Shown one piece after another: positions 13,836-49,935 of a stretch of DNA of 64,000 nt (position 1 is its first letter; each line of letters begins with the position of its first letter). The translations under genes were made by a program, and so were the position numbers. The stretch is from Marsupella aquatica. Its lineage: Eukaryota > Plantae > Marchantiophyta. The notes beneath the pieces are model-generated. The model ran no database searches. It was not told where the DNA came from and saw only the letters and a list, made by a program, of their open reading frames with translations. The stretch is taken from contig OZ316893.1 in the NCBI GenBank assembly GCA_973895155.1, positions 7,464,963 through 7,528,962 of the forward strand. Direction: 5' to 3'.

Positions 13836-16800
13836 TGTGACGCCGCCAGTACGGCGAGTAATGAGTAATTCGATCTAAACCGTGCCTAGCACGCGCGTTA
13901 GGAGCATCTTAGGTCGCTATGATTAGCATAACGACAGTATTTTAGGTAGCCATTATGAGTAGGAAATCATTAGTCAATAAGGGGAATTCATGTTCGGGCT
14001 GGCGGCGCGTCGCCATTTGCAAGCCCGGGTTACAAGCGTGGAGGGGCCCCTCCCTCGGGTCTGTATAACGAACTTCGGGAGGCGTCCACTGACACGCGGT
14101 GACTCAGACCGGCGGAGTGGCCGGTACACTACAAGCGTGAACGGTTCAGCCTATAGGCAACGAGGAGATGTCGAGGATCGGCAAGCCCTCAAGGTATAAA
14201 AAGGGAGCCGACCCTTTGGAGTGCACCAGTCCATCAGTCCACACGTCAGCTTCGACCCCAGCTCTCTCGTTCGCTCTAAGTCGCCACTACTATCTCCTCT
14301 GAATGTCGCACACGATCCTCTCCAGTTCGGCCATTCGATTCTGGACGTAGTTCCTATCTACCTGAAGGCACTTGGCCGACTCATTGAAACACGCCAACCC
14401 GCGCCGATACGAAATCGAACGCAAGTACGAGAGAGCCATCCGCCTAGCAGGACGACACCACTACATCCTTAACTTTGACTACCCGTCTCAGAGCGAGCTT
14501 TACCGACCAGCGATATCTGGGTACTTCTTCAACGGAGACAAATATATCGGTTTCTGGGAAGCATTGCTTTGGCTTCCGGACGAGGTCTTCAATATCCCGG
14601 GTATGATCGACTTGCAATGACATCACTTTGACCACATCCCTGCTTAGGTTCGGGCTATCATCAACAGCGAGTCCAACACTACCCGTTTGACAAGGTCGTC
14701 CGCACTTGCTTTAGAGAACTTCTACCAGCACCTGCAGAGCTTCATGGGAACTAGACCCGCAAACACCGGCGCCAGCCCAGTGGACCCCATACCCATACCC
14801 GTACCAACGCAGACTCAGGCTCAGGCTCAGCTTCAGGCTCAGCTTCAGTCTCAGTCTCAGCCTCAGCCTAGCCAACCCCCACCGCCGATCGCCCCGCCAG
14901 CAGTACAAGTACGCTCCGTCATCAACGCTGTGGACCTTAGCGACGACGACGAGGCTATCCCACCCTTGCTCAGGCGGCCCAGAGGAGCAAACACTCAGGG
15001 GGCCGACACTACATCGTCCCCTCCCCATGCTCGGACCCAAGGAGCGGCTCCAGCAGACAACACGGTGACTGTGGCCGCCCCGGGACCAATACTAACGGCG
15101 GTAGCACTACCTATGCCCGATCGAGAGGATGGGGAGGTGTCACCTTCCCCGAGCCAGTCACGGGGGAAGAAGAGGAAGGAACCCGCCACTCCATCCGGGT
15201 TACCATTGGCCACGGTAGCTGTGGCCAAGGTGACAATGCACCGCATGGGGGAAAATGTGCATAAGAACATCCTCCATCCCAAGCATGCGGTGTACCTGAA
15301 GACTCAGGGATTCGAGCACCTCGCCGCTCTGCCCTGGAACACTGGCAGGTACTACGGGGAGGACATGACAGAATTCATCAAGAATTATGATGATGCACGT
15401 CAGCATACTCGGCTGCGGGGAAGGAATATGTCCCTCACGGAAGAACGGCTCAAGATGATCTTCGGATTACCCGAAGGTGACCATCGAGTCGAATCATGGG
15501 CTCCCGGGGGCAAGGGAGCCAAGTACCAATCCTCGAGTTTTCCCTCAGAAGGAGCAGTGGACAACGGGCTCGTGATGAGGACCTGCCTCATCCCCGAGGT
15601 AGCTGAGCGACTGGAGTTCCAAAGGTACGCGCTCCACATGATGGAACCCCGGGGGGAGATCTCCGCCGCCCAGGTTATCCAGGTCGAGAACTATCGACCT
15701 AGGAAGTGGGCGTCGTACTTCGCTAAGAAATTCCATGAAGAGATGGAGCGTCGAAGGAAGACGTTGTACATTGGCGGGAAGGCGTATTTTGCCAGCCACA
15801 TCGAGATCATTCTTGAGTGGTACGCTCGGTTTGATCGACGAACCCTTCCCCGTGTTAACGTTACAAAGCTGGTCCCAGCTAGGTGGGTTTTTCCGGCCTT
15901 GGAGAGATGGCCCCAACCCGAGGCCCGAAGTCCAGCGGACACGCAAGCTTCACCCACCCCACCTCCACAAGTAGCTGTAGTCGTAACCGAGGAGGTACCG
16001 GATGGGTCAGTTATCGCAACCGTTGATGCGATCCAACAGGCCGGGCTAAGTACAGAAGTCGGTACAGCGGAGGTCTTACTCAAGCCCGGGTCTCCCAAAG
16101 ACCCACCGGTGGCTATTCCGGAGAACCGGACATTACTGCAGGAGGACACTCCAGCCCCTTCCAACATTACGTCCCCAGGGCTGGATGTCACTGCCCCGGC
16201 CCCCGCGCGTGTTGACGTCTGCCCGTGCCCAACTCCGGACAGGCACAACCTGGACCACCCGGAACTCTTTGTACCGGGTACATTTCTGAACGGGCTTCTG
16301 GGAGATTTCTCTCATCAAATTGCCCGAGATACCGGGGAGTTCATGGCTCGGAAGGTAGCCTGTTTCTTCAATCAGGAGTTAGTTGCCGCAGTAAAGGAGG
16401 TCGGGCCCAGTCAGAGGCCCTTAAGAGGATAGAGCGGTACCGGGTGGAGTCCGTATACTTAAAGAACGAAGTTGTGGCTCAAGAGGCTGAGCTTCTGCAA
16501 CTACGACCCAAAGTTGCAGCCGCCGATGATTTGTTAGCAAAGGCGCACGCCCTTACCGCCAAGCAGGCCAAAGCTGGGAATGAGGCCGAGATTGCACGAC
16601 TCTGGAATGAGGCCGAGATTGCACGACTCTGGCAGAAGGACCTGGAGGAGGCCAAAGAATGGGCCTAGCGGGACACTGCGGAGATAGCCACGCTATAGGC
16701 CGAAGTGGCACGGCTCCAAACCGAAGCCGAGAAGCAGGACCAGCTGGCGGGCAAGCTGACGAGCGACGCCCAGCAGCTGGAGGAGGCATGCCAGGAGGCA

Positions 16801-17837
16801 GCAGAGGAGACAGACGCGGCAAAGCAAGAGAACGAATCTTTGCTGGACCAGGTCCAGCTCCTCAAGGCAGACAACGATAGACTTCGTAAGCAGTGGGATG
16901 GCTGCTCCCACTCGGGCGGCTCTGGCAAGCGTACCAGGCATAAGCGGCGGAGTAGGAATAGAATAGGGTTAGGAGTAGCTAAGTCAGGCTATTGGGACAG
17001 GCACCTGCCTTAGTTACAGCAGCACTGCCATGCTGTCCAGCCTGCGTAGATTAGGATCTTCTAATAAGATACAACCGTTTTTCGGCCTGACAGTCAGATT
17101 AGTTAGGACCTAAGTCAGCGAATCTTTGGTCAGGAGGACACTTCGTTCCCCGGCCCTTAGTATTTAGTGCACCCCTCGGTAGAGGCAAGGGGGGGTTTTT
17201 AGTCTCAGAGTTGGACATCCATGGTATGCGCGGGGAGTCCCAACCTCTGGGAGTGAAAGAGTACCAAGGGGAGGGGGTAGGACTAAGCTCGTCGGGCGAG
17301 TGCGGAGCCAGGCTCCGTTGTAGTATACTGTCTCGGCCTTGAATCTGTTCATTCCGGAGCTGTCAGGTCAACCAAGTGTACGCACATGTCCCCTATGTAG
17401 TAAAATCCTTTCCCATTATTTCCTTCGTGTAAATCGAGATTGTATGCTTGTACGCGCGTATGTGTGTGTGAATCTTGTGTATAGGTGGCAACGCCGGGCC
17501 GAATGCACTACCCGAGTCGTGCACGGGGTGCAGCGTGCGGATATGTGGTTGCAAGCACGGGTTGAGGACCTGTATCATTGAATCCGGATCAAAGGCGGAC
17601 AACATGAAGGCTTAGAAGTCCTTAAGCCGGGGTCGATCCTGTCTAAGGTACGTTCCGGCGGTGGAACATAAACCATACCTAGGAGATGTCCGTATCTAAC
17701 AGTAGGCGCACTTAGCGCTAGTTTATGTGAATTAGGTGCATTACGCGCTTCCCTCCCTGCCCGAACCCTCATATTTACGAAGGAGGTGCCCGTTTAAAGC
17801 TGAAGCCCGAGTTAAGGCCAAGGCTGATGACGTGACA
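13836..17837 (+). mobile_element. 4002-bp solo LTR (family 1) containing a long ORF
   Basis: TGTGACG...CGTGACA termini; perfect 5-bp TSD ATGAA (13831-13835 / 17838-17842); TATA-like TATAAAA at ~14196; no gag/pol inside. Confidence 0.8.
14372..17013 (+). pseudogene. LTR-internal ORF: Pro/Gln-rich region, PMD/Transposase_32-like domain, C-terminal coiled coil
   Basis: 14372..14620 and 14687..16432 share a frame; frameshift near 16420 into the frame of 16225..16668 and 16705..17013; motif LAALPW...EFIKNYD...RLRGRNMSLTEERLKMIFGLP. Confidence 0.65.
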
Positions 17838-21900: not shown

Positions 21901-22172
21901 AAAATCTCTTTCTTTGTGAAACAAGATGGAAGTCTGTACTCAACCGTGTCAGTACCATGAGACCCTCCATAGGGAAGATGCGGCATGGGTTCTCCGTTTT
22001 GGGTTAGAATGGACTCCAACAAAGCACGAGCGTGCAAGGTGCTTCCCCGTGTCTTGTGTGAACCCTTGTTTCCATGGAATCCAACCGTGCAACCTGCTTC
22101 ATATTGATTTTTGTAATCATAATACTTGGCAATGTTGAATCCATGCATTTTAATAAATGCACCCTTGCAAAC
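18950..22172 (-). mobile_element. Sola-like element, copy 2, truncated at its 5' side by MULE A
   Basis: End ATCAGTCTATTCATTAAAA plus TGTACATTTGG repeats (18990-19110); transposase breaks at VCKGAFIKMHG directly against the GGGTAT MULE end. Confidence 0.75.
19776..22172 (-). pseudogene. DUF7869/Sola-like DDD transposase, 5'-truncated, frameshifted near the C-terminus
   Basis: CTLC Zn motif, IIHDKMDQ, LQMDNSGKDNKN and FLMVGHTHEDVDALF in ORF 20139..22148; C-terminal fragments run to 19776. Confidence 0.75.
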
Positions 22173-22941
22173 GGGTATAACATTGGTGATAGGAAATAGG
22201 TAACAGAATTCCTGTTATCAGGTAACTCTTAACTGGTAACAGGAAAGTCTTATGGTAAAAGTGTACTTTTTGGCTAAGTTTGCCAAAAATTAACGTCATT
22301 TTCCACCACATCATCAAGTTGAATGTCTTCTTAGTGCCAAATGTGACGCAGTCAGATATAAGCCAAGGGTGTGGTCACAACTGCAAAGAGAGGTTCCAAA
22401 CCGAGTGTCCATCTGTTCTACATGAATAATGTTGTCATAGAATATCCCTGCTATTTAGATACAGCATCATTTCAGAACAGTCCAGTTCAGAAAGCGCAGT
22501 TCAGCCTATGAGAAGGAAAAATAAAATCCATGCAGGAATGGAGTAATTTATGGTGGGACCCACCCTAAATCCAGTTATAGGCTTAAACAACCAATCGACG
22601 AAGAAGGGTTCTGGCATTTTCAATATTGGAGTCGGACAAAGTGTGAAACTAGCACCACACGCTAACAAAGCTTTAACAGGGACAAAAGTTTAAGTTAAGG
22701 GACAACAACATGACAATAACCAGATAAAATTCAAAATTTAACAATATTAATGTTCTGGAACCAGCGCCAGGCGCTAACCTAAAGCAAGAAAAAACCAGTG
22801 TAATATCCGTTGACTACAGACAAAAAGCATAGTATCCGTTACGAAAAATGATAGTCTCTAGAATGTCGTGTTACTCTACAAACCATTCGCGTTCTGCCTA
22901 TCCAGCACGAGTCTGACTTCCGCAACTATGAAAATGGGCTG

Positions 22942-25900
22942 TGTGATGCCTAGACAGGAATCACTCGGCCAGTTAAGTGGGTAAAGCAGGAAGGCACCCT
23001 AGGAACACCTTAGTATAGGGACAAAACAAGGAAAATATAAACCATTAGGGGCAACCATGGAACCCGGGCCGAGGCCGGAGGTAAGGACGCCGAGGGTGAA
23101 AACTCGATTAGGGTTAGGGCGCGTTAAGCGTCGGCGGCTAGGAAGGATCAACGGGAAGAAGGACCGGCAGAGGAGAGGGGTAAGGAGCGCTTGCAGGAGA
23201 TTGTGGCTCATTTGCGAGCACGAACTAGGCAGACGACTACGGGAGGCCAACTACTGTCAGCTGCTTAGGCAAGCACTCGGGGGGAGAGTAGATACCGACG
23301 ATCGACCTAAGGAGGGTATGAGCAACGTCAATCAAGCGACATATTTCTGGGGATGCCTGTTCGAATGGGCAACTGAGTACATCAAGACTTATGAGGATGA
23401 GGAATCAGAAAGGGCAGCTCAAGAATGGCAGGAGCTCGCTCGATTGTGGGAGCTGCGCAAGACGGCTTTCTTAGGAGGCGAACTCATCAAGGACGAGTTC
23501 CTGTGGACGCCTACCTCCAATCAACTCGACGATCTTCTGTTTTGCAAAGACAGCATCGTTGGCATCCAAGAGGCCATCAAGAACTGCAACGACATACACT
23601 AGGAATTAAAGGGTAGCACGGAAAGGTGGACCCAGGCAACGGTGCTAGGAGAAACCTCCACAGCAGCAGAGATGAAAAGGAAGGGAGCCGTCAACGATGA
23701 AGCCACCCCGGCAAAAAGAACGAGGTCGGCGGCACCAAAGAAGCCAGCCGAGCAGCAGAGCAGGAGGCAGGGAGAAGCCGAAGAGGAGGAGGTCGATCCC
23801 ATCAAGGCCATTCCAACCAGGGATGACACCTGGAAGGGCTGGGCGGCAACCCTACCGGTGGAAGTGCAACTACATTTTGCACGGGAGGAGGATGCATGCT
23901 TTACGGCAATGCAGACCAAGAAGTATCAAGGCTTCATGGCCGGATCCGGCTTAGAGGCCTTTGTAAGATTACCATGGCTGAAGTCGGAGGTACCGGAGTC
24001 AGACCTATTAGAATTCGTGGGGTCATGGGAACCCGAGACCAATTGCACGAGGATATATGGGAAGGATTTCTATCTTACTCCCAAGGTAATTGTCGAAGTG
24101 TTTGGCTTGCCGATAGGCAATAAGACCAAAGTTGATACCAGGAAGACCTTGCCTGACAAGGAGTTCCGGTCGTTCCCCGGGCCATCAACGAAGAATGGCT
24201 TCTTCCGGAACACCTGCACCAACCCGCACATAGGAGAGATGATCGACTTCTTGCGGGTGACCATGCATTGTAACTTGTCGAGGGCAGAGATCGGCAAGGC
24301 ACAGGTCTATCTGGCAGAAAGGCCAGACCCAAGCCGGGACTACAACGGGTACCTCCTCAACCAATTGAAGAAGATCTTAAAGGAGGAGCAGCAGGTAATC
24401 GGCATGGGGAGCGTGTCGCGGCTTGGCTATCACATGCTGCTGTTGTGCCGGTATGCCAGAGGTCAGACTTTTGCCCCAGTACTTCCCCTGTAGGTAAGGG
24501 CACCCGAGGAAGCTCCAACGCCGAGGTCGTTGGCTGAGAAGCCTCAACCACCTGTTAGCCCTACGATTGAGCAGGTGTTTAGACCCAGGAAGGAGGACCT
24601 GCCGATGCAGCAACCAGGCATGCAGAGTCTGCTGAAACTACTGGAGAAAGAAAAGAAATCGGCATCGGCAACAACAACGGCAACAATGCAGAACACTACT
24701 ACAGAGGTAGGCCTACACCGGCTCACAAGAGAAAACCCCTTTGCTGGAGACAAGGAGAGAATCAGGCCGGAATCCAAGCCAGGTGTTCGAATGTATGTGG
24801 GAATCTCAAGCTCCGAATCTGAGGCAAAATTGCCTGAAGCTCCTACCGACGAAGAAGAGAGGGAGAAGCCGGACGTCCAAGAAGTAGAGGAGGCAGTGGA
24901 GGACTGCAGCCATGATAATTCCGGCTATGGGTCGGACCATCACGTTCCAGGAGTAAGGACCTGTGGCCGGTTTGTCCCCACACTTCCAAGGGTAGTGCGA
25001 GGGGACCCCAACCAGCAGAGTAGCCCTGAGTCTCCCCCACCAGATGTTTCTCCCTCGAGCTTTGACGGCATAAAACAGATGGTGCAGGAATTTCAGGAGC
25101 GAATCAGGCAGGACGAGGAGGCAGCCCTGGCTAGGGAAAAGGATTTACCAGGAGGAGATTGGCCGGAGGACATCAGGCGGCTAGCCAAAAAAGGAAGCAA
25201 ACCTCTAGCCACGATTGAAGAGATCCGCAAGACGGCTTGGGAGCAGAGGCCGCGATGGGCGATGCCGATCACTTCTACTTACTCCACCTACGCTAAGAAT
25301 AGAGCCATGGAGTATGGTGAGATGTGTGGGGAACTTGCGCTCGGCATCTTTGGAGAGGAGTTGGAGGTAGGACCCTTTTTCCATAGGGAGCAGTTGGAGA
25401 AGCACCAATTAGAAGAAGCGGTGGCTTTAGAGAGAAGCAAGAAGGACGAGGTCATTCGGCGGCTTAGGAGGATGGAAGCCGAGATTGAAGATCTAAGGGC
25501 GGCGAAGAAAGCCCAAGATGAACTGCGGATTAAACGGCATGAGCTGAACATCATGCAGGGGCAGTTGGACATCGCGCAGGCTGAGAATCAGAATATCAAG
25601 GATAAGCTGACTCAGACGCAGGGAGAGTTGGCCGACACGATCAAAGAGAGGGAGAAGTGGAAGCAAGAGCTGAAGAATACAGAGGAGGCCCACATAACAG
25701 CCAACAGCCGGGCCATGGCGGAGACCCAAAGAAAGGAATGGGCGTTGAAGGGGGAGCTCGAGAAAATCCGCGGAGCCCTTGAGCAGAAGGAGGCCGAGTT
25801 AGGGAAATCCTATCAAGGGATTATGGCGCTGCAGCAGGAGCTTGCGTCCCTGACGGCCAGCTTCAAGGCCGACCTAAGGGAGAAGGATGAGATGCTCGAT

Positions 25901-27598
25901 CAGACTTACGCCAAGATGAACCAGATGGAGTCTGTCATCATTGCAGAGCTCGACAAGGAGCTAAGAGCAACCCGGGAGGAGAGGACTACCTTGAAACAAG
26001 AACGGGAGGAAGCCCAGAAGGAACTAGAGGAGGCACGCAAGGACCTGGATGAGACCCAGGAGGAGTTGGAGGAAATCACGAGGAAGATGGAGAACCTCCA
26101 GCGGCGGGCCGACAACCAAACGAAGCGGCTGAAGAAACAAGCCGCAGTATTTAAGTGCTTGTCTTCATCAGGCCCAACTCCAATTGGGGCAACCAAGTTA
26201 CCAGGAGTGGTACTGGCCGAAGAAAAAGCCGCGCCACCTGCACCAGTGCCGGAAGTAAGTGGGAAGGGGAAGGGACCAGCTGCCGAACCAGAAAAGAAGA
26301 AAAAGCGGAAACCTTCAGGGTCAAGGAGTAATCCGACTCCTCAAGCCGTGGTGACCAGGGAGGTAGAACCAGCACCATCCTCCGGCATGAATACGGCAAT
26401 AGATCCCGCTATCATCACAGGTGGGGGTGGTGCGGCCCAAGCCAAACTACTCAGTAATGAGGCCAGTATTCCAGATCCGCCTCTTGAGCAGGCCGGGGAG
26501 ACCATAGCCGAGGCTGAGGCCGTAACCGATTCCCGAGCCAATGCCGACGCCGATGGTGGACCCAGTCAGGCCGATGGAGAGTTGACTCAGTCAAGGGCAG
26601 GTAATCTGTCAGAGAATGAACCTACGGCAGTGGTTGAGGAGGAAGCGTTGGGGGCATCCATTAAGGATCCTCCACCGGTGTCGTGACGGCGCAAGGGCGC
26701 CGTTCCTTTTAGGGAGGGCGGACGTGGAGGGAGGAGGCGTGAGTGGGCAGGGCGGACGCTGATCTCCAAGTTTAGGATTAGGATCAGGACCAGGAGCGGC
26801 CCTGACACTTAGCTTAGTGGGATTGCGGTTCCACTGGTAGGAGCAACACTTGTGCTCTTGCCTTGCTGTACATAGGTAGATTCGGGCAAGTAGATTACTG
26901 TTAGGTAGATTAGGCTTACAATGCAAAGAATGGCGGATCCACTACCAGGATAAGTACCTGGGCAGCGGGGAGCTCAGGGCCTCTTCTTTAGCAAGTTTTT
27001 AGTTTGCACCAGCCGGGCTGGGATCAAGTAGTACGAGAAGCTCTCGGTTAGTCATACAGTGACCCTTGTGTATATTCATGTTTCCTCATGCCTAAGAGCT
27101 GAATAGAGTTGGCCTCACGGCTTAGTTCGCAGAGCTTGTGTATGAGATGTACTGTTTGTATGGCAAGTGCATGGTATGACTCAGTCAGAATGAGTCATTT
27201 TGCTATTTGTGTGTCGCATTAACTTGTGTGAAGAGTGCCCACATCAACCAAAAGGAAGGAAAGTAAGCAGGGGAGTGAGAGTTGGATGTGTCGAGCTGAG
27301 AGAGGTCTTAGCGGCTTAACCAAGCCTATTGGGGATCATTCCGGCGGCGGAATCCAAACATACCTAACAAGACGGAGGGGAAGACAGGGGAAGGCCTAGA
27401 TTAGGCCGGCTACGTATCTCATGACCCGATGAAGGACCTGTCCAGTATATGTGTGTAAAATGTTAACAGTAGTAGTAGAAGGTTAGCAGCGTCCCATGCC
27501 GCTAAGCCACGGAAACGGCCTCGCCAAGCTCGAAACCTGCGGGAATCGGCTTGAGCTGGGGGGTTTCTTGGGTTTAGGGAGCCATGGGACGCACCACA
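22942..27598 (+). mobile_element. 4657-bp solo LTR (family 2, Ty3/gypsy Tat-like) containing a long ORF
   Basis: TGTGATGC...GCACCACA termini; TSD GGCTG/GGTTG (one transition); flanks rejoin to restore the transposase C-terminus; full-length homology to 44856-49628, which is followed by a PBS. Confidence 0.9.
23057..26686 (+). pseudogene. LTR-internal ~1209-codon ORF: PMD-like domain plus long Smc-like coiled coil; two in-frame stops
   Basis: ORFs 23057, 23642 and 24530 share a frame; stops at 23600 and 24491 are TGG and CAG in the paralog; motif LLEFVGSWEPETNCTRIYGKDFYLTPKVIVEVFGLPIG. Confidence 0.8.
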
Positions 27599-30500
27599 GG
27601 TTGGCTACACAGGGTAGACTCCTCTACATGAAACTTGAAGACATTTATAAACACCCAATACAAATGTTTACAAGGCATATATGGCTTGCCGCGAGAATGA
27701 CGACGGAAGAAATCCTCATAGGAACAGGTTGGGAAGATGCAAATTTGGACAAAGTAAGTGTTCGGGGATCAAAGGTTCTCGTGGGTCCGGATTTTGAATT
27801 GCTTCCCAAATGCAATTCCAATACCCACATCCCACTCGCCATCCAGAGTCATAGCTTCTTTCCGAGCCGACTCCATTCGTGTACTGTGAGCCAAAGTTAG
27901 ATTTGATCAAGGTCTGGAGTTTCTCCCATTCCTGGTCCGAAGGCGTACGTTGGGGTCAGCAAAATTGATTCTTTCAAGAAATGCGTTTACATTAATTCTC
28001 AAGTCGAATGGAACAGGTGCATCTCGAGACGTCGCAGCTGTTTGGACCATCGAGACTCCCTGTGCTTGAAGGAACTCTACCTCGGCAGGTGACAAGTTGG
28101 TCCCTCTCACAACTGGCAAGATATCCGAAACAGGAGGAAGGCGTTCAACACCACGACGCGGATGGCTCTTGTAGCATGTTTTGTTTGCGCAGAACCATAT
28201 CATTTCTGCAATGGGTGTGCCTCTGAAAATTTGATGTCCGCTGACAACAATGCCGACAACACCTGTTGCCGAATGGAACCCGGATTTTTTTACACGATTT
28301 CGACACTCATCCCTCTCAGAATTTCCATGCAAAGTCCCATTGCACTGAGGCCCTGCCCCATATTTGGCCGTCCACCGCAAATGCCAGGTCCCTCTAGGAA
28401 CGTCCATTTCCAAAGGAGTTGACTCTGTCGGCAAATGTTGAAGAACAGCTGGAGCACTGAGTGGGGGTTGCGATGGTGTTGCTATTCCTCTGGCTTCAAG
28501 GATGTTTGCGAGGGAATCACTTCCATTCGTTGAAGTGTCGCTCCCGCCGAGGTCGACTATGGGATCTGTTACATTTTCGGGAAAGGAAGTGAAGGCAGTG
28601 TTGTTGAGATTCTTCCGTTTGAACCCTCGAGTATTTGGTGTAGTGATGAGAATGGTGTCATGCCGATGGGAGTCTTGTGGCGAGACAATCCCAGTTGCGA
28701 GTCCCTTCCTCTTAACTGACTTCATGACAATATCTCCATTCAGAGGAGAGCTCCTATCCAGATCCAAATCAGCAGCGTTGGAAAGAATCATGTTGGTTGC
28801 TTCTTCAAATAACTTGGGTGAACCAGATTGGTCTGCGGATAAATCTGCAGCACTAGTATAAACACACTGAGGTTTGACGAATAAAAGCATCAGGAAAACT
28901 TACCACACAAATGAAATTCCCCCATTGACGCCATCGAACAACCCACCAAGATATCCAACTCTACAACATCATCAGCTTTCCTGGGACACAATTTCCCGCT
29001 TGCCACCACAACACGATTTCCCTCGAAACTCGATACGCCGCAACAAACATTGGAGCATTCCGCAGTTTCTCCCATAGTTGCCGATGTTCTGGTTGCTTAC
29101 CCTCCAAAACTCCTTCTATAGAATGTCGATGGAAAGACTGGTAAAAGTGAAATGCATCAAAGCGTTCACGTTCAGGGTCTGGATGCCCTCCAAAAAAGAC
29201 ATTGCGAACGGCAATCCATCCAGCCTGAGCATTGTCAGCCATAAAACCTTGAATGACAACATCCTGTAACCCATTTTCCTTACAAACCTCAATCATAATT
29301 CTCCACGCTTTCTCAAAGGACTCCGTGTCTTCAGCTTTTAGTTTGCATGTGAAGATTGTACAAAGAGCTTGGAAGTTGTGATCATAAAGGTGTGCACTGA
29401 AAGTAAACCAGTCGGTTGTCACTCGCTTCATCACATCAAAACTCACCCAAGCTCCTTCCAATCTTCCGCCGGGTTGCATCTGCCGGAGAAGATCTACACC
29501 AGATCCATGACCCTTGACTGTCATTTTGAATATATGGGGCCTATCTGCTACACAACCCTGACCCGGCAGGAGGTACCTTTGGAGGAAAGAAATGTTATTT
29601 GACCTTTGCATCCAAGCTAGGAAATCTAACTCACCACGACCAGCCTGGTCCATACGAACGCTTCGACAAAGCGATGCAAATTTTTGGGGGGTAGACAGTA
29701 CCATGAGAGACTTCCAAATCTCCGTTTCTTCAATATCTACTATGTCTTCGATGTTTTCGCAAAGAGCTTTCACGAGCGATTCGGTTGCGGAATTCAAAAT
29801 ACCAGCCGGCTTTGCTAGAGGATTGGCTTCATGATTTCTTCTTATCAAATCCTCAGCTATCTTCTTAGCGCTCCTCGAGAAAACTTTCCTACTCTGATGG
29901 TTATGCTCACCTATATGAATTGCGAGCCGAGACATGTGACTATAGGTCTCTGTATCAAGGACTTGAGGGTACATATAAAACAAGCGAGCAGGGGCAAGAC
30001 TTCACACAGAAAGGAATCTGCTCACAATAGTGACAGACTACACCACCCTCTTCAATCAACGAACCCACCACGTGCTGGCCACTGAGTTTAGGAGCACCAT
30101 GCCAGGCCTTTGCATTGCATCTCTTCTTTTGTTGAAAGTACTCACAGGACTTGTTCCTGCACTCGATGAACCCGGTACACGTAACCTTACCAAATTCCCA
30201 ATGTTTCTTTGGATGCAGGCTCGCAGTTGTCGGAAAATTTGGGTCCAAATGTAACAATCTTTGGCACGGTCCATGTCACGAAGTCTAGATCCCTTGGAGA
30301 GCGTTCCCTCAATGGGAGGAAGTTCAAATACAACATTTCCGTTGTACTTGTCTGGCAAACAAGGAACTTGCTCATGCCGAAAATCCCCTGCCGAGATAAA
30401 TCTTGACAGTTCACTATGTCCCGTGGCCTTGAGTAAGGCGTCCATCGCACTCCTTCGATAGACTTTATGACCAACTCGGGAGGTAGCCACCGGCTCATCC

Positions 30501-31689: not shown

Positions 31690-34600
31690 CTATAAACGAT
31701 GAGCATTTTGCCTCTCTAATATGAGCCGAACCTCTCCAACAGTGAGAATTGGTTGGCTGGTCAATGTAGATTCCTCAACGTCTAGTTTGAAAACGGTAAG
31801 GAAAATCCAATACAAATGTTTGCAAGGCATATATGGATGTTTCCGGGAATGTCGCCGGTAGAAATCCTCACACGAGCAAGTGGGGAAAATGCAAATTTGA
31901 ACAAAGTAACAATTTGGCGTCCACATATTTTCGTGCGTTTGCACCTTAAACTGTTTTCCCCATGCATTCCCAATCGCAACATCCCACTCTCCCTGAATGG
32001 ACATCGTCTCTTTTTTTGCAGACGCAATTCTGTTCATGTGACCCTGGGTAAGATTTGACCGAGGAACCGTATTCCTCCCATTCCGGCTTCGGAGACGAAC
32101 ATTGGGTTCGAGAAGATTCACATGTTCTGGAAAGATATTGACATTGATTCGAAGATCAAAATCTGACGGGGGTCTAGTTGTAAGTTCATTTCCGCGCACT
32201 AGGGAGATTCCGTTGTCAAGAAGATATTGCAGCTCGTCCTCCGAAACATTTGTCCCTTTCAAAACGGGAAGAACATCAGGGAAAGGGGGAAAATTCAAGA
32301 CACCTCGACGCGGGCGACTTCTGTAACATGTATTGTTTGGGCAAAACCAAATCATTTCGGTTATGGGTTCCCCCCTGAAAATCTGTTGACCTTTGACAAC
32401 AATACCGATAACACCATGTGGTGAGGGAAATCCAACTTTTTTCACGCGATTGCGACACTCATCTCTTTCAGAATTACGGGAAAATGATCCGTTGCACTGA
32501 GGACCAGCGCCAAATTTTGAAGTTCGACGTAATTGCCATGCAGCTAGAGCAACCTCCGTCTCATGGACAGGACACTCTTGTAACGGTTGCTGAAGCACGG
32601 AGGGAGCAGTCTGGGGAAGCCTCGTTGAACGCGTTCGGTCTCGAGCAGGAGGGGTATTGAAATCGACATCTTCTCCAGCGCCCGAAATGTCACTTCCAGA
32701 CAGATTAACAACAGGATCAACTTGAGGCGTGGGGCCAGGGATAGCATCAAACGCCATGCGATTAAGATTCTTCCTTTTCATCGATCTAGTATTGGGCGAG
32801 GTGACAAGGATTTTATCATGCCTATGGGAGTCTTGTGGCGAGATATTCCCAGATGCATGTCCTTTCCTCTTCAAAGACTTGGTGACAACGTCTCCATTGA
32901 GAGGTGCACGTCTCTCCAAGTCAAACTCGGCAGCGTTGGACAGTAGCATATTCATTGCGTCTTCATACAACTTGGGGGAGCCTGCTTGGTCCGCTGATCG
33001 GAAAGCGAGTTCCCAAATTGTGGGACCTCTTCCTCTATGCAACCCTTTCCGATACGTAGTGTAAGCAGCAACCTGAGAAATAGCTCGATTTTGGTCCATT
33101 TCACATGCCTCAAAGAGCCCAACCTTTTTCTTCATTACCCATGCTTTCATACCTGCGTGCACGGACTCTGATCCTGTACAATTAGGAATCTTAGCCCCTT
33201 CTTGGACACTCTTGTTCTGCAATCACATAGAATAAAGTGTCTATTACAGAACAAGAAAACACTAGCGTCGGGCGTTAGTGAAGTGGACTCTCTCCTTAGA
33301 AGTCAAAACTGGCGCTGTACATTAAGGGACAATTTATTTTGTCCTATTGTGTCATATGACAGTTTGAATAAATGATAGCGCCAGGCGCTAGTATTAAAGG
33401 ATGCTATGGTATTGTAATATTTGAATATGGATACAAACATTTTGAAATGAGAATATAGCACTACAATACCTAAAGAGCGGAAAGCAAAGTAAACTAACTT
33501 ACCAAACGAATAAAATTTCCCCATTGTCTCCACCTGACGACCCACCATGAAATCCAACTCTGGAGCATCCGGAGCTTCCCGGGGACACAGTTACCCGACT
33601 GCCACCACAAATCAATCTCCCTTGAAATTCTGTAAGCCTCTACAAACGTGGGGGCATTTCGCATCTTATCCCAAAGCCTACGATGCTCTGCTTGACTATC
33701 TTCAATCACTCCTTCAATCGAATGGCGATGGAAGGCTTGGTAGAAATGGAATGCATCAGTTCGCTCACGCTCAGGGTTTGGATGCCCTCCAAAAAAGACA
33801 TTTCGGACTGCAAGCCAACCAGCTTGAGCATTGTCCGCCATGAATCCATGAATAATCGGATTTTCTAATCCATTCTCTTTGGACACCTCAATCATTAGTC
33901 TCCAAGCCTTCTCGAACGACTCTGTATCCTCTGCTTTTAGTTCGCAGGTGAACAAGGTACACAGAGCGCGATAGTTGTGATCATAAATATGCGCACTAAA
34001 AGTAACCCAGTCTTTTGTAAGCTATTTCATCACATCAAAACTTATCCAAGCACCTTCGAGACTTCCACCAGGTTGCATTTGTCTCAAAAGATCAACGCCT
34101 GATCCATGGCCGATCGAAGTCATCTTGAAAATGTGAGGACGGTCTTCTTGAGATCCTTGACCTGGTAGGAGGTACCTTTGGAGGAAAGGCATGTTGATAT
34201 TTCTTTGATACCGAACAAGAAAATCTAGTTCACCTCGACCTTTCTGGTCCTGTCTAACACTACGAAAGAGGGACGCAAACTTTTGGGGTGTGGAAACTAC
34301 CATGAGAGACTCAAATATCTCTGTTTCTTCAATATCTTGAATATCTTCCATACTTTCACACAAGGACTTTACAAAAGACCCTGTCGCCACATTTTTTACA
34401 CCAGCAGGGGTGAAAATTGGATTTCCTTCCAATTTCTTTTTGATAACCTCCTCAACAATCTTCTCTGCGCTCCGAGAAAACACCTTTCTTGAAGGATGGT
34501 TGTGGATCCCCATATGAATTGCCAAGCGGGACATGTGAGTACAGGTGTCTGAGTCAACTAGAACCTGGGGGTACATGTAAAATAACCTTGCTGGACAGGA

Positions 34601-35554: not shown

Positions 35555-36436
35555 TGGTATTCATAGTGAATAATCCGTTTGTCAGAGCCGTTATAATACG
35601 ACAGAAACACTACCGGTCGAAAGCACATCTGACACAATAAATGTTTTTTGTCGTTATGTCAACGACATTTACACTAATGAGCCTAAGATGTCCGTTTCCA
35701 AAGAGCATAATCATGATAATTAAATCATGTTAATTGAGTAGCGCCCGACGCTACTCAAACATCCTACCTTCAACATGGACCCAAAATGGTGAAATATGGC
35801 GCTACTCAAACACACACCATAAATTATGGTATAAAAGTGGAATGTTTTATCCGGGGTTTCAGAATAAATACTAAATGTTTGTAGCTAATTTTTTAATATT
35901 ATCTAAAATATTACCAAAATGTGCCCATTTAATATTAGCGTCGGGCGCTAATCCAAAACGGTAATCATGACATTCATTTATGGAAAAATATTCAAAAATT
36001 GTATTCATTTGGCTTTTTATTGTATACTTGAGGGTGAATGTTGACCTAACTTTGGGAAATTTTATGGTTTAAATTGTGATGATTTTGAGTAGCGCCTGGC
36101 GCTACTATTGACCAATATCAGATTTGAACTAGGAATATATATTAAATTCAACGAACTGTTCTTTAACGGTCATATTCAACGGTAACGTTAGGTCGCGTAA
36201 CGTCGAAGATATGCCAACGGTATTCGGACAACTAATCCAGAATTGACAAGTGGCGCTCAAGAGATAGATATCAAAGTAGCAAGGGGATAGTTTAGAGATG
36301 ATACTCCCCCCCCCCCTCCCTTGTCCGCTGTATTTAGGTTCCGTTTCGGAGGTTCTTCGTGCAAGAATTCTCTAGAAGAAGTACGGTACGAATGAGGTAC
36401 TCATCACGATCGTGAAGCACTTCGTGTCTGAGAAAC

Positions 36437-43500: not shown

Positions 43501-44964
43501 ACAGGGCCTCCATTTGACCCACTTACACCCGTCGAGAAAGGGAAGTCAATTGCTCCAGTAGATGCGGTCAGTACTAGAAAGAAGCGAAAAAGGGCAATTG
43601 AAGGTGGATCCTCCTCCGCTCGGGAAAGTGCGGTTGCAACGAGTGTTCAACGTGAAGTTGGTGACTTCAAAAACACTCTTTCAAGGCATTGCATGGTTGA
43701 GTCTAGCATCTCAAAATTCTATGACACAACGTTCAACAAAGAGGAGAAGCCTGACTGGGTAAATGGTGTAGAGAAATGGGCAAAGGAACTCATGAAGTCG
43801 GGATATCGAGACAAGGGAATTGTCCATGGGGGGAAGGAAAGATCCTTTGGAGTACACGCGGGATTCATTTACCTTCCTACGGGTCTGAACCATCGCTGCT
43901 AGATAGAAAAGTCCCAAAATGGAATACCCCTGACCACACACTGGCAACATCATTCTTTCGTGGAATGGACCCATTTTTATCAAATGACGGAATGCTAGCA
44001 GTTTTGCATAATGGGGAGTACGATCCTATGTCTCAGGTTATATCCACATGTTAGGAATCGAAGAAGTTTCATTGCATCTCCACACACAATGTTGTTATGT
44101 CAGTTCCTATGTACGTGCCGAAGACTGACCGACAGGTAAATTCCAAGTCATGATCTCTATTTTTTACACTCAAAAATGTGTATGAATGCAAGGAATGACA
44201 TATCATTCTTGGTTTATCTCGCAGATATTCACGCTCAGGCTAGACGTCTTTTGCCGAGTATCTCAGAAAGGGAAAGTACCCAAGGACTCGAGGTTTAGAC
44301 CTCTGTTTGTTACAGAAGATCCCTCCATCACTAATTTAATTGGGCTTCCAACTCTCAATATAGATCCAACACCTGAGATGGAATTCGCAGGGAATGCCCG
44401 TTTGTCGGTTGGATTCATGCAGTTTGTGATAGAGCTCATCATTCGGCCTCAGGATATTTTCATAGATTGGACAGTTGGTTCGGGTAGCTCTTTTGTAGCT
44501 GGAGACTATTCTGGGAGGTTTGTTATTGGACTGGAGAATTGGAAGGATTTTGTTGAAACTGGTTCCAAGGCGTTCTTAAATCTACTCTCTTCTAAGGAAG
44601 TAGAAACCTTGCCTCCCCCAATTCAACCACCGGAAAAGAAAAAGAGGGACAAGCTCCGGTCTGTACTTAATTTTGACTCCGATGATGAGTCAAGTGGGGG
44701 GACAGCAGATGAAGTGGACGGGGAGACAACTCAAGGGGAGTAAGGAGCAATCTGCTGGCGAGAGTGACAGCGATGACTCTTTCGAGTAATGTTCTGAAAC
44801 TCGTAAGCTTCTTTCTCTTTTCCAGCTCCTTCATGCATTTTGTGCTATTGATTATTGTGATGCCTAACCAGGAATCACTAGGCCGGTTAAGTGGGAAAAC
44901 GGAAGTGTACCCTAGAAACACCTTAGTATAGTTACAAGAATGAGGAAAATATATACAATTAAGG

Positions 44965-47900
44965 ATGACTATGGAACCCGGGCCGAGGCCGGAAGTAAGG
45001 ACGCCGGGGGAGAGAATACAATTAGGGTTAGGGCGCACTAAGTGTCGACGGCTAGGGATAACCAACGATAGGGAAGACCAGAGGAGGAGAGGGGTAAGGA
45101 CGGCTCACGAGGAATGGTGGCTCATTTGCAAGCACGAACTGGGCAGACGACTATGGGAGGCCAACTACTGTCAGCTGCTTAGACAAGCACTCTGGGCGGG
45201 AGCAGATACCAACGAATAACTCAAGGAGGGTATGAGCAACGTCAATCAAGCGGCACATTTTTGGGGATGCATGTTCGAACGGGCAATTGAGTACATTGGG
45301 ACTTATGAGGACGAAGAATCGGAGAGAGCAGCTCGAGAACAGCAGGAGCTCGCTCGACTATGGGAGTTGCTGAAATCTGCCTTCTTAGGAGGAGAATTCA
45401 TCAAGGTCGAGTTCTTGTGGACTCCTACTGCCAATCAGCTTGATGACCTTCTGTTTTGCGAAAACAGGATCGTCGGTATTTGGGAAGCCATCAACCGCTG
45501 CAACGACATACACTGGGAGTTGAAGGGTAGCATGGAGGGGTGGACAAAGGCAACCATGCTAGGAGAAACATCCATGGCAGCCGAGATGAAGAGAAAAGGA
45601 AACAACAACGAAGAGGCCACCCCAGCAAAAAGAACAAGGTCGGCAGCACCAAGGAAGCTAGCAGAGCAGGGAAGCAGGAGGCAGGCGGAAGCTGACAAGG
45701 AGGAGGTCAATCCCATCAATGCCATTCCAACAAAGGATGACACCTGGAAAGGCTGGGCGGCGACCCTACCAGAAGAAGTGCAACTGCATTTTGCACGGGA
45801 GGAGGATGCATGCTTTACCCATGCAGACCAAGAAGTACCAGGGCTTCATAGCCGGATCCAGCTTGGAAGCCTTCGTAAAATTACCATGGCTGAAGCCGGA
45901 GGTGCCGGATTCAGACTTATTAGAATCTGTGGGATCATGGGAGCCCAAGACCAATTCCACAAGGGTGTATGGGAAGGATTTCTATCTCACTCCCCGGGTG
46001 ATTGCCGAAGTGTTTGGCTTGCCGATGGGCAATAAGACCAAAGTAGATACCAGGAAGACCTTGCCAGACAAGGAGTTCCGGTTGTTTCCAGGGCCATCAA
46101 CAAAGAATGGCTTCTTTTGAAACACCTGCACCAACCCACACATAGGAGAAATGATCGATTTCTTGCGGGTGACCATGCATTGTAACTTGCCGAGGGCAGA
46201 GATCGGCAAGACATAGGTCTATCTGGCGGAGAGGCCAGACCCAAGCCGAGACTACAACGGGTACCTCCTCACCCAACTAAAGAAGATCTTGAAGGAGGAA
46301 CAGCTGGTGATCGGCATGGGAAGCGTGTCCCGGCTTGGCTATCACATGCCGCTATTGTGCCGGTATGCCAGAAGTCAGATCTTTGCCCCAGTACTTCCCC
46401 TACAGGCGAGGGCACCAGAGGAAGTCCCGAAGCAGAGGCCGGCAATAGAGGAGCCCAACCAGCCCGCCAGTCCTACGATCAAGTAGATGTTTTGGCCAAG
46501 AAAAGAAGACTTGCCGATGCAGCAATCAGGCATGCAGAATCTGCTGAAATTGCTGGAAAAGGAGAAGAGAACGGCAACGGCACCGGCACCGGTACAGGAC
46601 ACTGCCCCAGAGGTTGGCCTAAGCCGACTCAGGAGGGAAAACCCCTTTACCGGAGCCAAGGTGAGAAGGAGGCCAGAACACGAGCCGGGAGTTCGAATGT
46701 ATGTGGGAGCCTCTAGCCCCGAATCGGAGGCAGAGCAGCCTAAGGCTCCTGCCCGCGGAAAGCAGAGGGAGAAGACAGCCTGGAAGCCAGAGGAGGAACC
46801 AGGGCCCATGATCTGTGAGGCCATTTTTACGGCGGGACCAGGAGAATAGAGGGGGAAGCCGGGAGTCCAAGCAGTGGAGGAGGCGGTGGAGGACTACAAC
46901 AATGATAACTCTGGCTATGGGTCGGATCATCATGTACCAGGAGTAAGAACCTGTGGCCGCTTTATCCCCATGCTTCCAAGAGTAGTTCGAGGGGATCCCA
47001 CCCAACAGAGCAGCCCCGAGTCCCCCCCACCAGATGTCGCTCCCCCGAGATTTGATGGCATAAAGCAGACGGCACAAGAGTTTCAGGAGCGACTCAGAGA
47101 GGAAGAGAAGGCAGCCCTGGCTAGGGAGAAAGATTTACCAGGAGGAGATTGGTCGGAGGACATCAGGCGGCTTGCCGAAAAAAGAAGCAACCCTCTTGCC
47201 ACCATAGAAGAAATCCGCAGGGCGGCTTGGGAACAGAGGCCGAGGTGGTTGATGCCGATGACTTCTACTTACTCCACCTATGCTAAAGATAGAGCCATGG
47301 AGTATGGGGAGATGTGTGGGGAACTTGCGCTCAGCATCTTTGGGGAGGAGTTGGAGCAGGGACCCTTTTTCCAGAGGGAGATATTGGAGAAGCACCAATT
47401 AGAAGAAGCGGTGGCTTTGGAGAGAAGCAAGAAGGACAAGGTCATCCGGCGGCTTAGGGAGATGGAAGCCGAGGTGGAAGACCTAAAGGCAGCCAAGAAA
47501 GCCCAAGATGAGCTACGGATTAAACGGCATGAGTTAAACATCATGCAGGGGTAGTTGGATACCGTGCAGTCTGATAATCAGATTATCAAGGATAAACTGA
47601 CTCAGACCCAAGGAGAGTTGGCCGAGGCGGTCAAAGATAGGGAGAAGTGGAAGCAAGAGCTGAGAGACGCAGAGGAGGCCCACATAGCAGCCAACAAGCG
47701 GGCCATGACGGAGACTCAGAGAAGGGAGAGGGTGTTGAAGGGGGAACTCAAGGATATCCGTGCAGCCCTAGAGCAGAAGGAGGCCAAGTTAGGGAAATCC
47801 TATCAGGCGATTATTGTGCTGCGGTAGGAGCTCGCATCCATGATGGCCAGCTTCAAGGCCAACCTCCGCAAGAAAGATGACCAGCTCGACCAGACTTATG

Positions 47901-48709
47901 CCAAGATGAATAAAATGGAGTATGAGGTCGTTACAGAGCTCGACAAGGAGCTGAGAGCAACCCAGGAGGAGAGGGCTACCTTAAAGAAAGAGTTGGAGAA
48001 AGCCCATAAAGAGTTGGAGGAAGCCCAGAAAGAGTTGGAAGAAGCCCAGAAGGAGCTGAAGGAGGCAAGGAAGGACCTGGATGAATTGCAGGAGGAGTTG
48101 GAGGAAAGCACACGGAAGATGGAGAACTTACAGCGGCGGGCCGACAACCAAACGGAGCGGCTAAAGAAACAGGCCGCAGTATTTAAGTGCTTAGCTTCAT
48201 CTGTTCCAACTCCAATTGTGGGAACCCCATTACCAGGAGTGGTACTGGCAGAAGGACAAGCCAAGACACACGCCCTGGTGCCGGAGGTAAGTGGCAAAGG
48301 GAAGGGACCAGCTGCCGAAATAGGGAAGAAGAAGAAGCGGAAACCTTCTGGGTCTGGGAGTTATACGGCTCCTCCAGCCGTTGTGACCAAGGAGGTAAAC
48401 CCGGCACCAACCTCCGGCATGGTCACGACAATGGATCCACCTGTCAAGGAAGGTGGGGATGGCAAGGCCGAGGCCGGGACAACTATTGATGAAGCTGTGG
48501 TAGCAAACCCACCACTAGAGCTAGCCGAGGAAACCATAGCCGGGGAGGCTGTGGCCGATACTGATGCCAAAGCCGAGGGTGGACCCAGTCAGGCCGATGA
48601 AGAGTTGACTTGGTCTGAGGCAGGTAATCTGTCAGAGGAAGGACCGACGGCAGTGACTACGGGGGAAGCGTTGGGGGCGTCCATTGAGGATCCACCATTG
48701 GTGTCGTGA
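44965..48709 (+). pseudogene. LTR-internal PMD-like/coiled-coil ORF, more decayed paralog of 23057-26686
   Basis: Colinear fragments 44965, 45232, 45719, 46289, 46487, 46874, 47555 and 47840; multiple TAG/TAA/TGA stops and one frameshift. Confidence 0.8.
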
Positions 48710-49632
48710 CGGTGCAAGGGCGTCGTTCCTTTTAGAACGGCGGACGTGGAGGTAGGAGGCGTGAGTGGGCAGGGCGGGCTCGGATCTCCAAGTTTAGGTT
48801 GAGGATCAAGACCAGGAGACGGCCCTGACACTTAGATTAGTGGGATTGCGGATCCACTAGTAGGAGCAACACTTGTGCTCCTGCCTCGATGTACATATGT
48901 AGATTACAGTTAGGTATATTACAGGTAGGATAGATTAAGCTTACGCTGCTATGAATTGGCGGATCCACTTCCAGGATAAGTACCTGGGCAGCGAGGAGTC
49001 CAGGGCCTTTTTTTTAGCAAGTTTTTAGTTGCACCAGCAGGGCTGGGATCAAGTAGTAAGAGAAGCTCTCGGTTAGTTATACAGTGACCCTTGTGTATAT
49101 TCATGTTTCCTCATGCCTAAGAGCTTAATAGAGTTGGCCTCACGGCTTAGTTCGCAGAACTTGTGTATGAGATGTACTGTTTGTATGGCAAGTGCATGGT
49201 ATAACTCAGTCAGAAGGAGTCATTTTGCTATTTGTGTGTCGCATTAACTTGTGTGAAGAGTGCCCACATCAACTAATAGATGAAGGGAAGTAAGCAAGGG
49301 AGTGAGAGTTGGATGTGTCGAGCTGAGAGAGGTCTTAGCGGCTTAACCAAGCCAATTGGGGATCATTCCGGTGGCGGAATCCAAATACACCTAAAGAAAA
49401 GGAGGGGAATACAAGGGAAGGCCTAGATTAGGCCGGCTACGTATCTCATGACCCGATGAAGGATCTATCTAGTATATGTGTGTAAAATGTTAATAGTAGT
49501 AGTAGAAGGAAGTTAGCAGCATCCCATGCCGCTAAGCCGCGGAAACGGCCTAGCCGAGGACAAAACCTGCGGGAATCGGCCTGCGCAAGGGGGTTTCTTG
49601 GGTTTGGGGAGCCATGGGACGCACCACATTTT

Positions 49633-49650
49633 TGGCGCTAGATGTAGGGG
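49633..49650 (+). promoter_or_regulatory. Primer-binding site, tRNA-Asn type
   Basis: TGGCGCTAGATGTAGGGG 4 nt after the LTR-terminal CA; 16/18 match to TGGCGCTAGAAGGAGGGG, the complement of the plant tRNA-Asn 3' end (recalled consensus). Confidence 0.75.
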
Positions 49651-49697: not shown

Positions 49698-49935
49698 ATG
49701 ACTGAACCTACGCCAAGGGAAGAAAGAGTGATTCAATGGGAGAGAGCTCGTCTACAACAACTCGCCAGGTGGCATGATACACAACGACTGAGAGGGGCAG
49801 AAAGAGCTAGTAGCTCCGTAACTGAAAGTGGCATCGAAGAAGACATACCGGAAGAAGAGTCCGCAAGGAGAAGTGAGTCTCCAACCGACATGGGAGAACC
49901 AGAGGCACGGCCAGACCAGAGGCCAGGGACCAGAC
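49698..49935 (+). pseudogene. Probable gag N-terminus, truncated
   Basis: ATG ORF ~50 nt after the PBS, cut by the GGGGTATTTAC terminus; identity inferred from position only. Confidence 0.5.

Follow-up and report, generated by a model that had tools for sequence, protein, structure and literature searches.

A gene with a predicted VANC21-like fold within giant LTR-like units of two diverged families in Marsupella aquatica

Three long TG...CA units, here called A, B and C, lie in a 64,000-nt window of Marsupella aquatica contig OZ316893.1 (GCA_973895155.1), to whose forward strand all coordinates refer (Table 1). Unit A opens with TGTGATGCC at 22942 and closes with CACCACA at 27598, and within the window both end motifs are confined to units A and B (0 expected from shuffles). 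On either side its flanks form one contiguous alignment with a host paralog carrying a single GGTTG at 31751-31755; the left-flank alignment scores 132 against a shuffled maximum of 43. A sequence-only reading had described a TG...CA unit with a 5-bp target-site duplication (TSD). Both ends stand, whereas the duplication proved imperfect (GGCTG/GGTTG). No internal copy of either unit end was found within units A and C. As a whole, the earlier observation was largely confirmed.

Table 1 Features of the three units and their surroundings in the 64,000-nt window.
Feature	Positions	Strand	Remarks
Unit C, TG...CA unit	13836..17837	+	4002 bp; perfect ATGAA duplication (13831-13835, 17838-17842)
Sole TATAWA box of unit C	14195..14200	+	offset +360, upstream of C ORF
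Sense ORF of unit C, decayed	14303..17013	+	open 14648-16429; frameshift near 16430
Core domain, unit C	15200..15862	+	AF2 pLDDT 83.5; structural match VANC21, Z 8.1-8.2
Unit A left target-site copy GGCTG	22937..22941	+	right copy GGTTG at 27599-27603; match 4/5
Unit A, solo-LTR-like insertion, TG...CA	22942..27598	+	4657 bp; terminal inverted match 7/8
Sole TATAWA box of unit A	23036..23041	+	offset +95, same offset in B
97%-conserved block	23057..23092	+	ATG first, GTAAG donor-like motif inside; mini-exon or RNA element candidate
Sense ORF, unit A	23318..26686	+	1122 codons; stops at 23600, 24491 private to copy A
Conserved core, unit A	23783..24490	+	dN/dS 0.15; homologous to C core
Coiled-coil region, unit A	25403..26149	+	heptad-rich segments; weak Pfam coiled-coil matches
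3' non-coding block, unit A	26687..27598	+	A-B identity 92%, 97% in 26991-27240
Empty insertion site, paralogous host repeat	31751..31755	+	GGTTG present once
Unit B, paralog of A, likely 5' LTR of truncated element	44856..49628	+	ORF decayed: 7 stops, one frameshift
Primer-binding-site-like motif	49633..49650	+	4 nt past terminal CA of unit B; TGG-starting
Possible gag start, frame behind PBS	49698..49934	+	79 codons; no family match; unrelated repeat from 49936

Unit B is colinear with unit A over the full length at 83-85% identity, in agreement with the end-to-end homology proposed earlier, and has the same terminal inverted match (7/8). Each of the five A-B indels inside 24658-26531 has a length divisible by 3, and a 2-bp indel lies near 23905/45818. 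No target duplication was found around unit B. Its end is followed by TTTT and then, at 49633, by TGGCGCTAGA, which lies within the 0-5 nt behind a 5' LTR that is the spacing of a primer-binding site (PBS). The earlier call of a PBS after unit B therefore holds at the level of a TGG-starting PBS-like motif, putatively of tRNA-Asn type. A tRNA scan of the 64-kb window found no tRNA genes and an Rfam scan gave no match. The 'gag-like start' placed behind the PBS did not hold up, as the 79-codon frame has no Pfam match and is interrupted by an unrelated repeat; no continuation of it was found in the sequence beyond 56305. Asn-type PBSs with a 5-bp TSD are known in Athila, TatII and Retand, with Asn shares of 12%, 15% and 4%, respectively (PMC6317226 supplement).

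Unit C is a new observation and represents a second, distantly related family with the layout of A/B and a homologous core. GC steps mark it on both sides and its terminal inverted match is 6/7, while the right boundary is without empty-site support and chance alone would produce CA+ATGAA roughly once every 6 kb. The 9-mer TGTGAYGCC occurs three times in the 64 kb, at the starts of units C, A and B. The A and C cores share 25.5% identity (tblastn, E 2e-14) and reach 99.5% over 196 columns with hhalign; searching the window with an HMM of the core revealed no fourth copy. Behind the frameshift of unit C follow a coiled coil and a basic tail.

The A/B sense frame evolved under purifying selection from about 23300 on. 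From that point dN/dS of the A-B pair ranges over 0.05-0.3, and the overall value is 0.305 (95% bootstrap 0.25-0.37). Four other frames give 0.84-1.40, and the antisense mirror frame has a dN/dS of 0.365 but 27-29 stops. Because dN/dS is 1.2 in 23057-23300 and unit B has a stop there, the selected ORF likely begins at the ATG at 23318 (1122 codons) rather than at 23057 (1210 codons). Of the sense gene of about 1,200 codons first read here, the long constrained frame stands, with a length of about 1,120 codons and a start at about 23300. The two stops of the A frame (23600, 24491) are indeed sense codons in B, the B frame has seven stops of its own, and all three ORF copies in the window are broken. 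Downstream of the A coiled coil lies a disordered tail bearing a basic KKKKRK run, and no transmembrane segment was found (19-residue hydropathy maximum 1.0).

In every unit a TATA box precedes the gene and a poly(A)-like tract follows it, with about 1.29 kb of non-coding sequence. The TATAWA box of unit A is a candidate promoter of its gene, a TGTA cluster lies about 440-530 bp before the unit's end, and the 3' non-coding block is likely the poly(A) region plus U5. GC-box-like and telo-box-like motifs lie directly past the ORF stop. The CpG ratio is 0.66 in A, 0.57 in B and 0.84 in C, compared with 0.69 in the window; A and B thus give no sign of methylation escape, their CpG depletion being similar to that of the window, and C is higher.

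We consider it very probable that the whole A/B/C unit is an LTR. A single LTR is the most likely identity of the unit because A is an insertion with an empty site, A and B are colinear, and B is followed by a PBS-like motif. The claim that the whole 4.7 kb is an LTR carrying a gene is accordingly well supported, short of proof, by the empty site, the lack of an internal terminal repeat, the PBS-like motif, a sharp 5' boundary common to the whole family in public contigs and the second family. In public contigs, 12 of the 20 listed contig pieces (among 307) start exactly at 44856, and none in four runs spans 44826-44845. The flanks upstream of 44856 are mixed (agreement 0.47 in X1, 0.53 in X2), the sequence past 27598 is likewise mixed, and the empty form is present in X1. 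The public contigs also join the unit end into further family copies, and therefore nested insertion occurs. Purine-rich loose ends were seen at two places: the one in X5, before 44856, comes from two contigs only with an agreement of 0.8, which is chance level, and the one at 22938 was rejected as a polypurine tract, since it matches a motif within the LTR's first 45 bp. No gag-pol domain, polypurine tract or element with two such repeats was seen, with unit B truncated and the public contigs short. Contig collections from metagenomes, viruses and prokaryotes were scanned for two-copy elements or homologs and yielded none, and word-index homolog searches restricted by length windows gave no match. 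The ORF is likely a non-chromovirus Ty3/gypsy accessory gene relocated into the LTR; the PBS-like motif and the TSD are compatible with Athila/Tat.

The core of A, B and C is, with good confidence from structural modelling, a predicted DNA-binding domain of the VANC/PMD superfamily. The AF2 model of the C core reaches a pTM of 0.82 along with the pLDDT given in Table 1, and is confident in one of five models (the others 57-42). Among 48,161 PDB chains it matches VANC21 alone (Z 8.1, rmsd 4.2, 199 of 221 residues), with the runner-up at Z 2.3; the comparison with VANC21 (VIA) gives Z 8.2 and rmsd 4.0 over 201 residues. Foldseek also places VANC21 first for the C model, with a TM of 0.48 and all other listed rows at or below 0.16, at an E of only 0.27, an rmsd of about 4 Å and 11% identity. 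The A core model has a pLDDT of 53 and did not retrieve VANC21, and a VANC21/DUF1985/PMD-like fold is predicted for it by transfer from C through homology. With E values up to 5 allowed, none of the 26 aligned members was matched by the Pfam HMMs of PF10536 (plant mobile domain, PMD), PF20167 (Transposase_32) and PF09331 (DUF1985); ESM features point to DUF1985, PMD, Transposase_32 and ATHILA with scores of 0.84-0.89, as leads only. A viral fold library gave no match to the C model, and PDB sequence searches were negative. The earlier PMD label thus fails at the Pfam level and is right at the superfamily level, because VANC21/DUF1985 is reported to be structurally similar to PMD (PMC5418596; bioRxiv 10.1101/2024.09.27.615353).

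What the protein does is a separate question. We give an anti-silencing or self-activating role at best an even chance, and MAIN/MAIL1, which have the same fold, are described as silencing factors, a point against such a role. With the gene still LTR-borne, we think it unlikely, though worth weighing, that its protein instead directs where the element integrates, acts on element RNA or serves as a structural accessory, forming oligomers through its coiled coil. No VANC-type motif array or enriched 6-9-mer rises above the null in units A, B and C, nested insertion occurs in contigs, the function of the PMD-coiled-coil extra ORFs of Tat is stated as unknown (PMC4408406), and oligomerisation via coiled coils has been predicted for VANC and for Athila-domain proteins (PMC13547354). 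On the other hand, VANC21, the sole structural match, is an anti-silencing factor in its DNA-bound state and the protein has basic NLS-like runs; an Env-like membrane role is unlikely for a protein without a transmembrane segment.

Rather than LTRs, the units could be independent non-autonomous elements, either TG...CA DNA elements or retro-derivatives, with B standing before the PBS-like motif by accident. Two of the three units are free-standing and flanked by a TSD, Mutator-like DNA transposons carry VANC and some PMDs, TGGCGCTAG occurs at two further window positions and no gag-pol was found. We nevertheless regard this as improbable: features of a TIR DNA transposon were not found, with an inverted match of at most 8 bp (7 of 8 identical) and no Pfam match to a transposase family, B has no TSD and a PBS-like motif just past its CA, and TG...CA ends with a 5-bp TSD are the signature of an LTR integrase. 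More improbable still is a short-LTR element in which the ORF would be a normal extra ORF of the internal region, with A and C as deletion or recombination derivatives, since, even though the plant extra ORFs described in the sources consulted are all internal and the GC-box-like and telo-box-like motifs behind the stop could be an old short LTR, there is no repeat of the 5' end inside A or C, the B ORF lies before the CA-PBS junction, the layout is common to two families at 25% identity and the contigs have a single sharp 5' boundary.

We favour, with some reserve, a model in which the units are giant LTRs from two diverged families of plant Ty3/gypsy elements, and in which each carries a long sense gene with a core of predicted VANC21-like fold, whose product would likely act on the chromatin of its own family. 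The LTR would be a complete transcription unit with a single TATA box, the ORF and a TGTA-rich poly(A) tract; reverse transcription would copy the gene to both element ends, and LTR-LTR recombination would leave solo gene cassettes. A stand-alone solo-LTR cassette would fit the two solo units and their promoter-like and poly(A)-like motifs. The product, with its predicted DNA-binding fold, coiled coil and basic NLS-like runs, would likely keep the family's chromatin active. We lean slightly towards a genomic RNA that starts from another promoter located downstream of the ORF, which would place the ORF in U3 as in MMTV sag. A start at the same TATA box, with the ORF within a 3-4 kb R, comes close to an even chance and would require the strong-stop DNA to be very long and read-through at the 5' poly(A) site to be regulated. 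More speculatively, an old plant Ty3/gypsy lineage may have moved a VANC-like, DNA-binding anti-silencing gene into its LTR. Each integration would then double the gene, and solo-LTR recombination, the principal way in which the host purges such elements, would leave solo cassettes that are expressed and reactivate the family in trans.

With a gene borne in the LTR, solo LTRs, usually regarded as dead ends, would become potential gene cassettes, and the layout sits uneasily with the usual picture of U3/R/U5 and reverse transcription. LTR finders and surveys of extra ORFs restricted to the sequence between LTRs would overlook it. Through the predicted fold, retrotransposon accessory ORFs are linked to VANC21, the transposon anti-silencing protein that has been studied best, and the question of function becomes testable.

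Among known systems, the PMD-coiled-coil extra ORFs of Tat/Ogre elements (TatIII-V) combine, like units A-C, a PMD-superfamily-like core with a coiled coil, and these elements share the 5-bp TSD and, putatively, a non-Met PBS (PMC4408406, PMC6317226). Ogre LTRs reach about 5-6.5 kb (PMC6431247). In these sources the Tat/Ogre ORF lies in the internal region, either at the 3' side in antisense or at the 5' side in sense orientation, and long plant LTRs are treated as non-coding, whereas in units A-C the ORF fills the LTR and has no PF10536 match; for Tat I/II and moss Tat-like elements, PMC4408406 reports no extra ORFs. VANC21 (DUF1985) of the Arabidopsis VANDAL21 Mutator-like transposons (PDB 9lnj/9lnk; PMC5735166) is element-encoded with the fold predicted for the C core, and VANC has a coiled coil behind its globular domain (PMC13547354), as do the units here. 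VANC belongs, however, to DNA transposons and is reported to be dicot-specific, it targets tandem motif arrays of a kind not found in A, B and C, and the C core has only 11% identity to VANC21 and no PF09331 match. The host PMD-C proteins MAIN/MAIL1/MAIL2 are described, in PMC5418596 and bioRxiv 10.1101/2024.09.27.615353, as chromatin regulators tied to DNA motifs; they are host genes without Pfam-level sequence similarity to the units' product.

A search of the open-access full-text literature returned no case of an ORF inside a plant LTR, an MMTV review being the only relevant match. For the position of the gene, the closest precedent is MMTV sag. The sag/naf ORF is about one third as long as the ORF here. 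According to that review (PMC9412291), it is a protein-coding ORF in the LTR and has an upstream promoter of its own, P2, in U3, although MMTV is a vertebrate retrovirus and the protein is unrelated to the A-C product.

Unit A is a real feature: together with its paralog, unit B, and with unit C it very likely represents the LTRs of two old families, with a selected accessory gene of predicted VANC-like fold inside. The sequence-only reading had described A as a TG...CA unit with a 5-bp target duplication, homologous to B from end to end, and both points were borne out. The two units align over their entire length at 83–85% identity, and each of A's two end motifs occurs twice in the window against none expected. 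The 5-mers flanking A are GGCTG on the left and GGTTG on the right; in a paralogous host repeat the two flanks are contiguous and GGTTG is present once, at 31751–31755 (left-flank alignment score 132, shuffled maximum 43). Hence, A inserted cleanly, and the 5-bp duplication that it produced has evidently mutated at one position since. It lies near the start of the first of two tandem host-repeat copies. Parts or all of the window are contained in 14 public runs from 10 studies, two of these runs holding half of its words or more. In contigs from four of 15 listed public runs (26,513, 14,929, 710 and 92 contigs), cover upstream of B's start is zero; 12 of the 20 pieces listed start exactly at 44856, upstream flanks are mixed, as they are behind 27598, and run X1 contains the empty form of A's site. 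In some contigs the unit's 3' end is joined to inner positions of other copies, which points to nested insertions; no polypurine tract was established from these contigs.

B has no target duplication (ATTAT/TTTTT). Directly 3' of it come TTTT and, at 49633, a motif starting with TGG, presumably a tRNA-Asn primer-binding site (PBS), whose 9-mer recurs in the window at 41133 and 50497; a scan of the window found no tRNA gene. The claim that B is followed by such a PBS and a gag-like start holds for the PBS-like junction but less well for gag: the 79-codon frame behind it has no Pfam match, is interrupted at 49936 by another repeat's terminus and has no continuation beyond 56305. Unit B sits as an insertion at the end of a copy of a multi-copy repeat family, whose broken gene combines an N-terminal part, presumably ParB-like, that bears a DGNH-like motif, with a methyltransferase-like C-terminal piece. 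An N4/N6 methyltransferase-like domain on a transposon in a plant genome is worth a separate study. The minus-strand PBS motif at 58412, which we take to be of tRNA-Met type, probably belongs to an unrelated LTR element, at its 5' end.

Coordinates of units, genes and neighboring repeats in the window
Feature	Position	Strand	Remarks
DUF7869-encoding repeat copies	10603–12192; 19828–22214	−	Pfam E 6e-44 and 3e-32
Palindromic tandem units	12846–13020; 18184–18509		88–91 bp; DUF7869 repeat copies around them
Unit C	13836–17837		4002 bp; TG...CA, perfect ATGAA duplication; contains frame matched by A's protein
tblastn match of A's protein	15281–15829		25.5% identity, E 2e-14
TAGATTA word	17045–17100; 26870–26915; 27399		Candidate binding site
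Unit A	22942–27598		4657 bp; first bases TGTGATGCC, last bases CACCACA
Sense frame of A	23003–26686	+	Two stops
Maximal constraint (core)	23900–24500		dN/dS 0.15
Coiled coil	about 25400–26150	+	Behind core in A's ORF
Tandem host repeat	27907–30742; 31690–35560	−	Long minus-strand ORFs, no Pfam match
Multi-copy repeat, long broken gene	36494–40164 (+); 41686–44848 (+); 51916–55223 (−)		
C-terminal piece of its gene	39535–40161		Pfam N6_N4_Mtase, E 1e-8
Unit B	44856–49628		
79-codon frame	49698–49934		Truncated by left inverted terminus
Inverted termini	49936–49997; 56244–56305		87% over 62 bp, no target duplication; similar end at 41619–41680
PBS motif	58385–58430	−	
Tandem unit	60014–61573		576 bp, about 2.7 copies, 77–80% identity
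LINE-like ORF start	62596–64000	+	Endonuclease domain, Pfam E 5e-4

Both stops in A's sense frame are sense codons in B, as had been noted; in the same frame B carries seven further stops and a 2-bp indel. The 1202 codon pairs compared give dS 0.415 and dN 0.127, and the dN/dS of 0.305 (bootstrap 0.25–0.37), a comparison proposed earlier, reveals purifying selection; four other frames give 0.84–1.40, and the antisense mirror frame 0.365, yet with 27–29 stops. Given a dN/dS of 1.2 and a stop in B across 23057–23300, the selected gene likely begins at ATG 23318 and has 1122 codons rather than the ~1200 first claimed. The 36 bp that begin with ATG 23057 are 97% conserved and may be a mini-exon or RNA signal. 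A basic tail follows the coiled coil, and A's ORF has no transmembrane segment.

Unit C represents a second family, homologous to the first in the core of its protein. Comparison of the two cores in hhalign gives 99.5% over 196 columns, using an alignment that also contains two sequences closer to C. GC content steps from 0.33 to 0.54 and from 0.51 to 0.37 at C's ends; CA+ATGAA by itself turns up roughly every 6 kb, and no empty counterpart of C's site was found, so that support for its right end comes from the GC step together with an inverted match. The 64 kb contain the word TGTGAYGCC at three positions, one at the start of each of the three units. Although A and C have no alignable DNA in common, they are built alike. 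Upstream of the ORF stands the sole TATAWA box (at +95 in A and B, at +360 in C); the sense ORF encodes, in this order, a core, a linker, a coiled coil and a basic tail; a TGTA cluster lies 360–530 bp from the 3' end; and, in B too, about 1.29 kb is non-coding, given the ORF limits chosen here. Neither A nor C repeats its own ends internally.

HMMER with A's core against 1.84 billion proteins returned 19 relatives; two of the ten looked up carried a species name, in each case that of the liverwort Calypogeia fissa (E 6e-5 and 3e-4), no more than a hint of a non-seed plant. Pfam PMD (plant mobile domain), Transposase_32 and DUF1985 were matched by none of the 26 aligned members and appeared as sub-0.9 leads in ESM feature searches. 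The model of A's core was poor (pLDDT 53) and found no match in structural searches. Of five models of C's core, built from the 26-sequence alignment, one reached pLDDT 83.5 and pTM 0.82, and its top Foldseek match was DNA-bound VANC21, the DUF1985 anti-silencing protein of Arabidopsis VANDAL21 transposons (TM 0.48, other matches listed at 0.16 or less; E 0.27). VIA gave Z 8.2 (rmsd 4.0, 201 residues), and when 48,161 chains were searched without Foldseek, only VANC21 exceeded Z 2.3 (Z 8.1, rmsd 4.2, 199 residues); a Z near 8 by itself may reflect a common arrangement, but here the gap to the next chain and the coverage are large. The available parts of two sources report PMD and VANC's DUF1985 as structurally similar (10.1101/2024.09.27.615353; PMC13547354), and the earlier description of the gene as PMD-like survives at the level of the predicted fold but not of Pfam matches. 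The core is predicted to be a VANC/PMD-type DNA-binding domain with a coiled coil. PMC5735166 shows VANC21 to bind motifs within the transposon family it belongs to and to remove methylation; a fold in common is not proof of function. No enriched words were found as candidate target motifs in A, B and C, and CpG depletion of A and B equals the window's. The TAGATTA word that recurs 3' of the ORF in all three units is not significant in shuffles.

If the whole unit is an LTR, it would carry a promoter and a poly(A) signal along with the gene; reverse transcription would put the gene-bearing LTR at both element ends, and LTR–LTR recombination would yield solo cassettes like A and C. Most tentatively, the protein might enter the nucleus, oligomerise and protect or activate family copies in trans. 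The ORF would lie in either U3 or a giant R: the single TATA box upstream fits a giant R, and GC-box-like repeats (26711–26758) with a 97% block (26991–27240) would suit a second promoter 3' of the ORF.

LTR size alone is not new, since Ogre LTRs measure 1.9–6.5 kb in the available text of PMC6431247. Plant extra ORFs, PMD-coiled-coil ones included, are internal in the accessible parts of four papers (PMC6317226, PMC4408406, PMC11963269, PMC7264820), whereas those of A, B and C lie inside what is very probably the LTR. Searches of open-access text brought up no plant LTR containing an ORF. A precedent for this position is MMTV sag, placed within U3 with its own promoter in the available part of PMC9412291.
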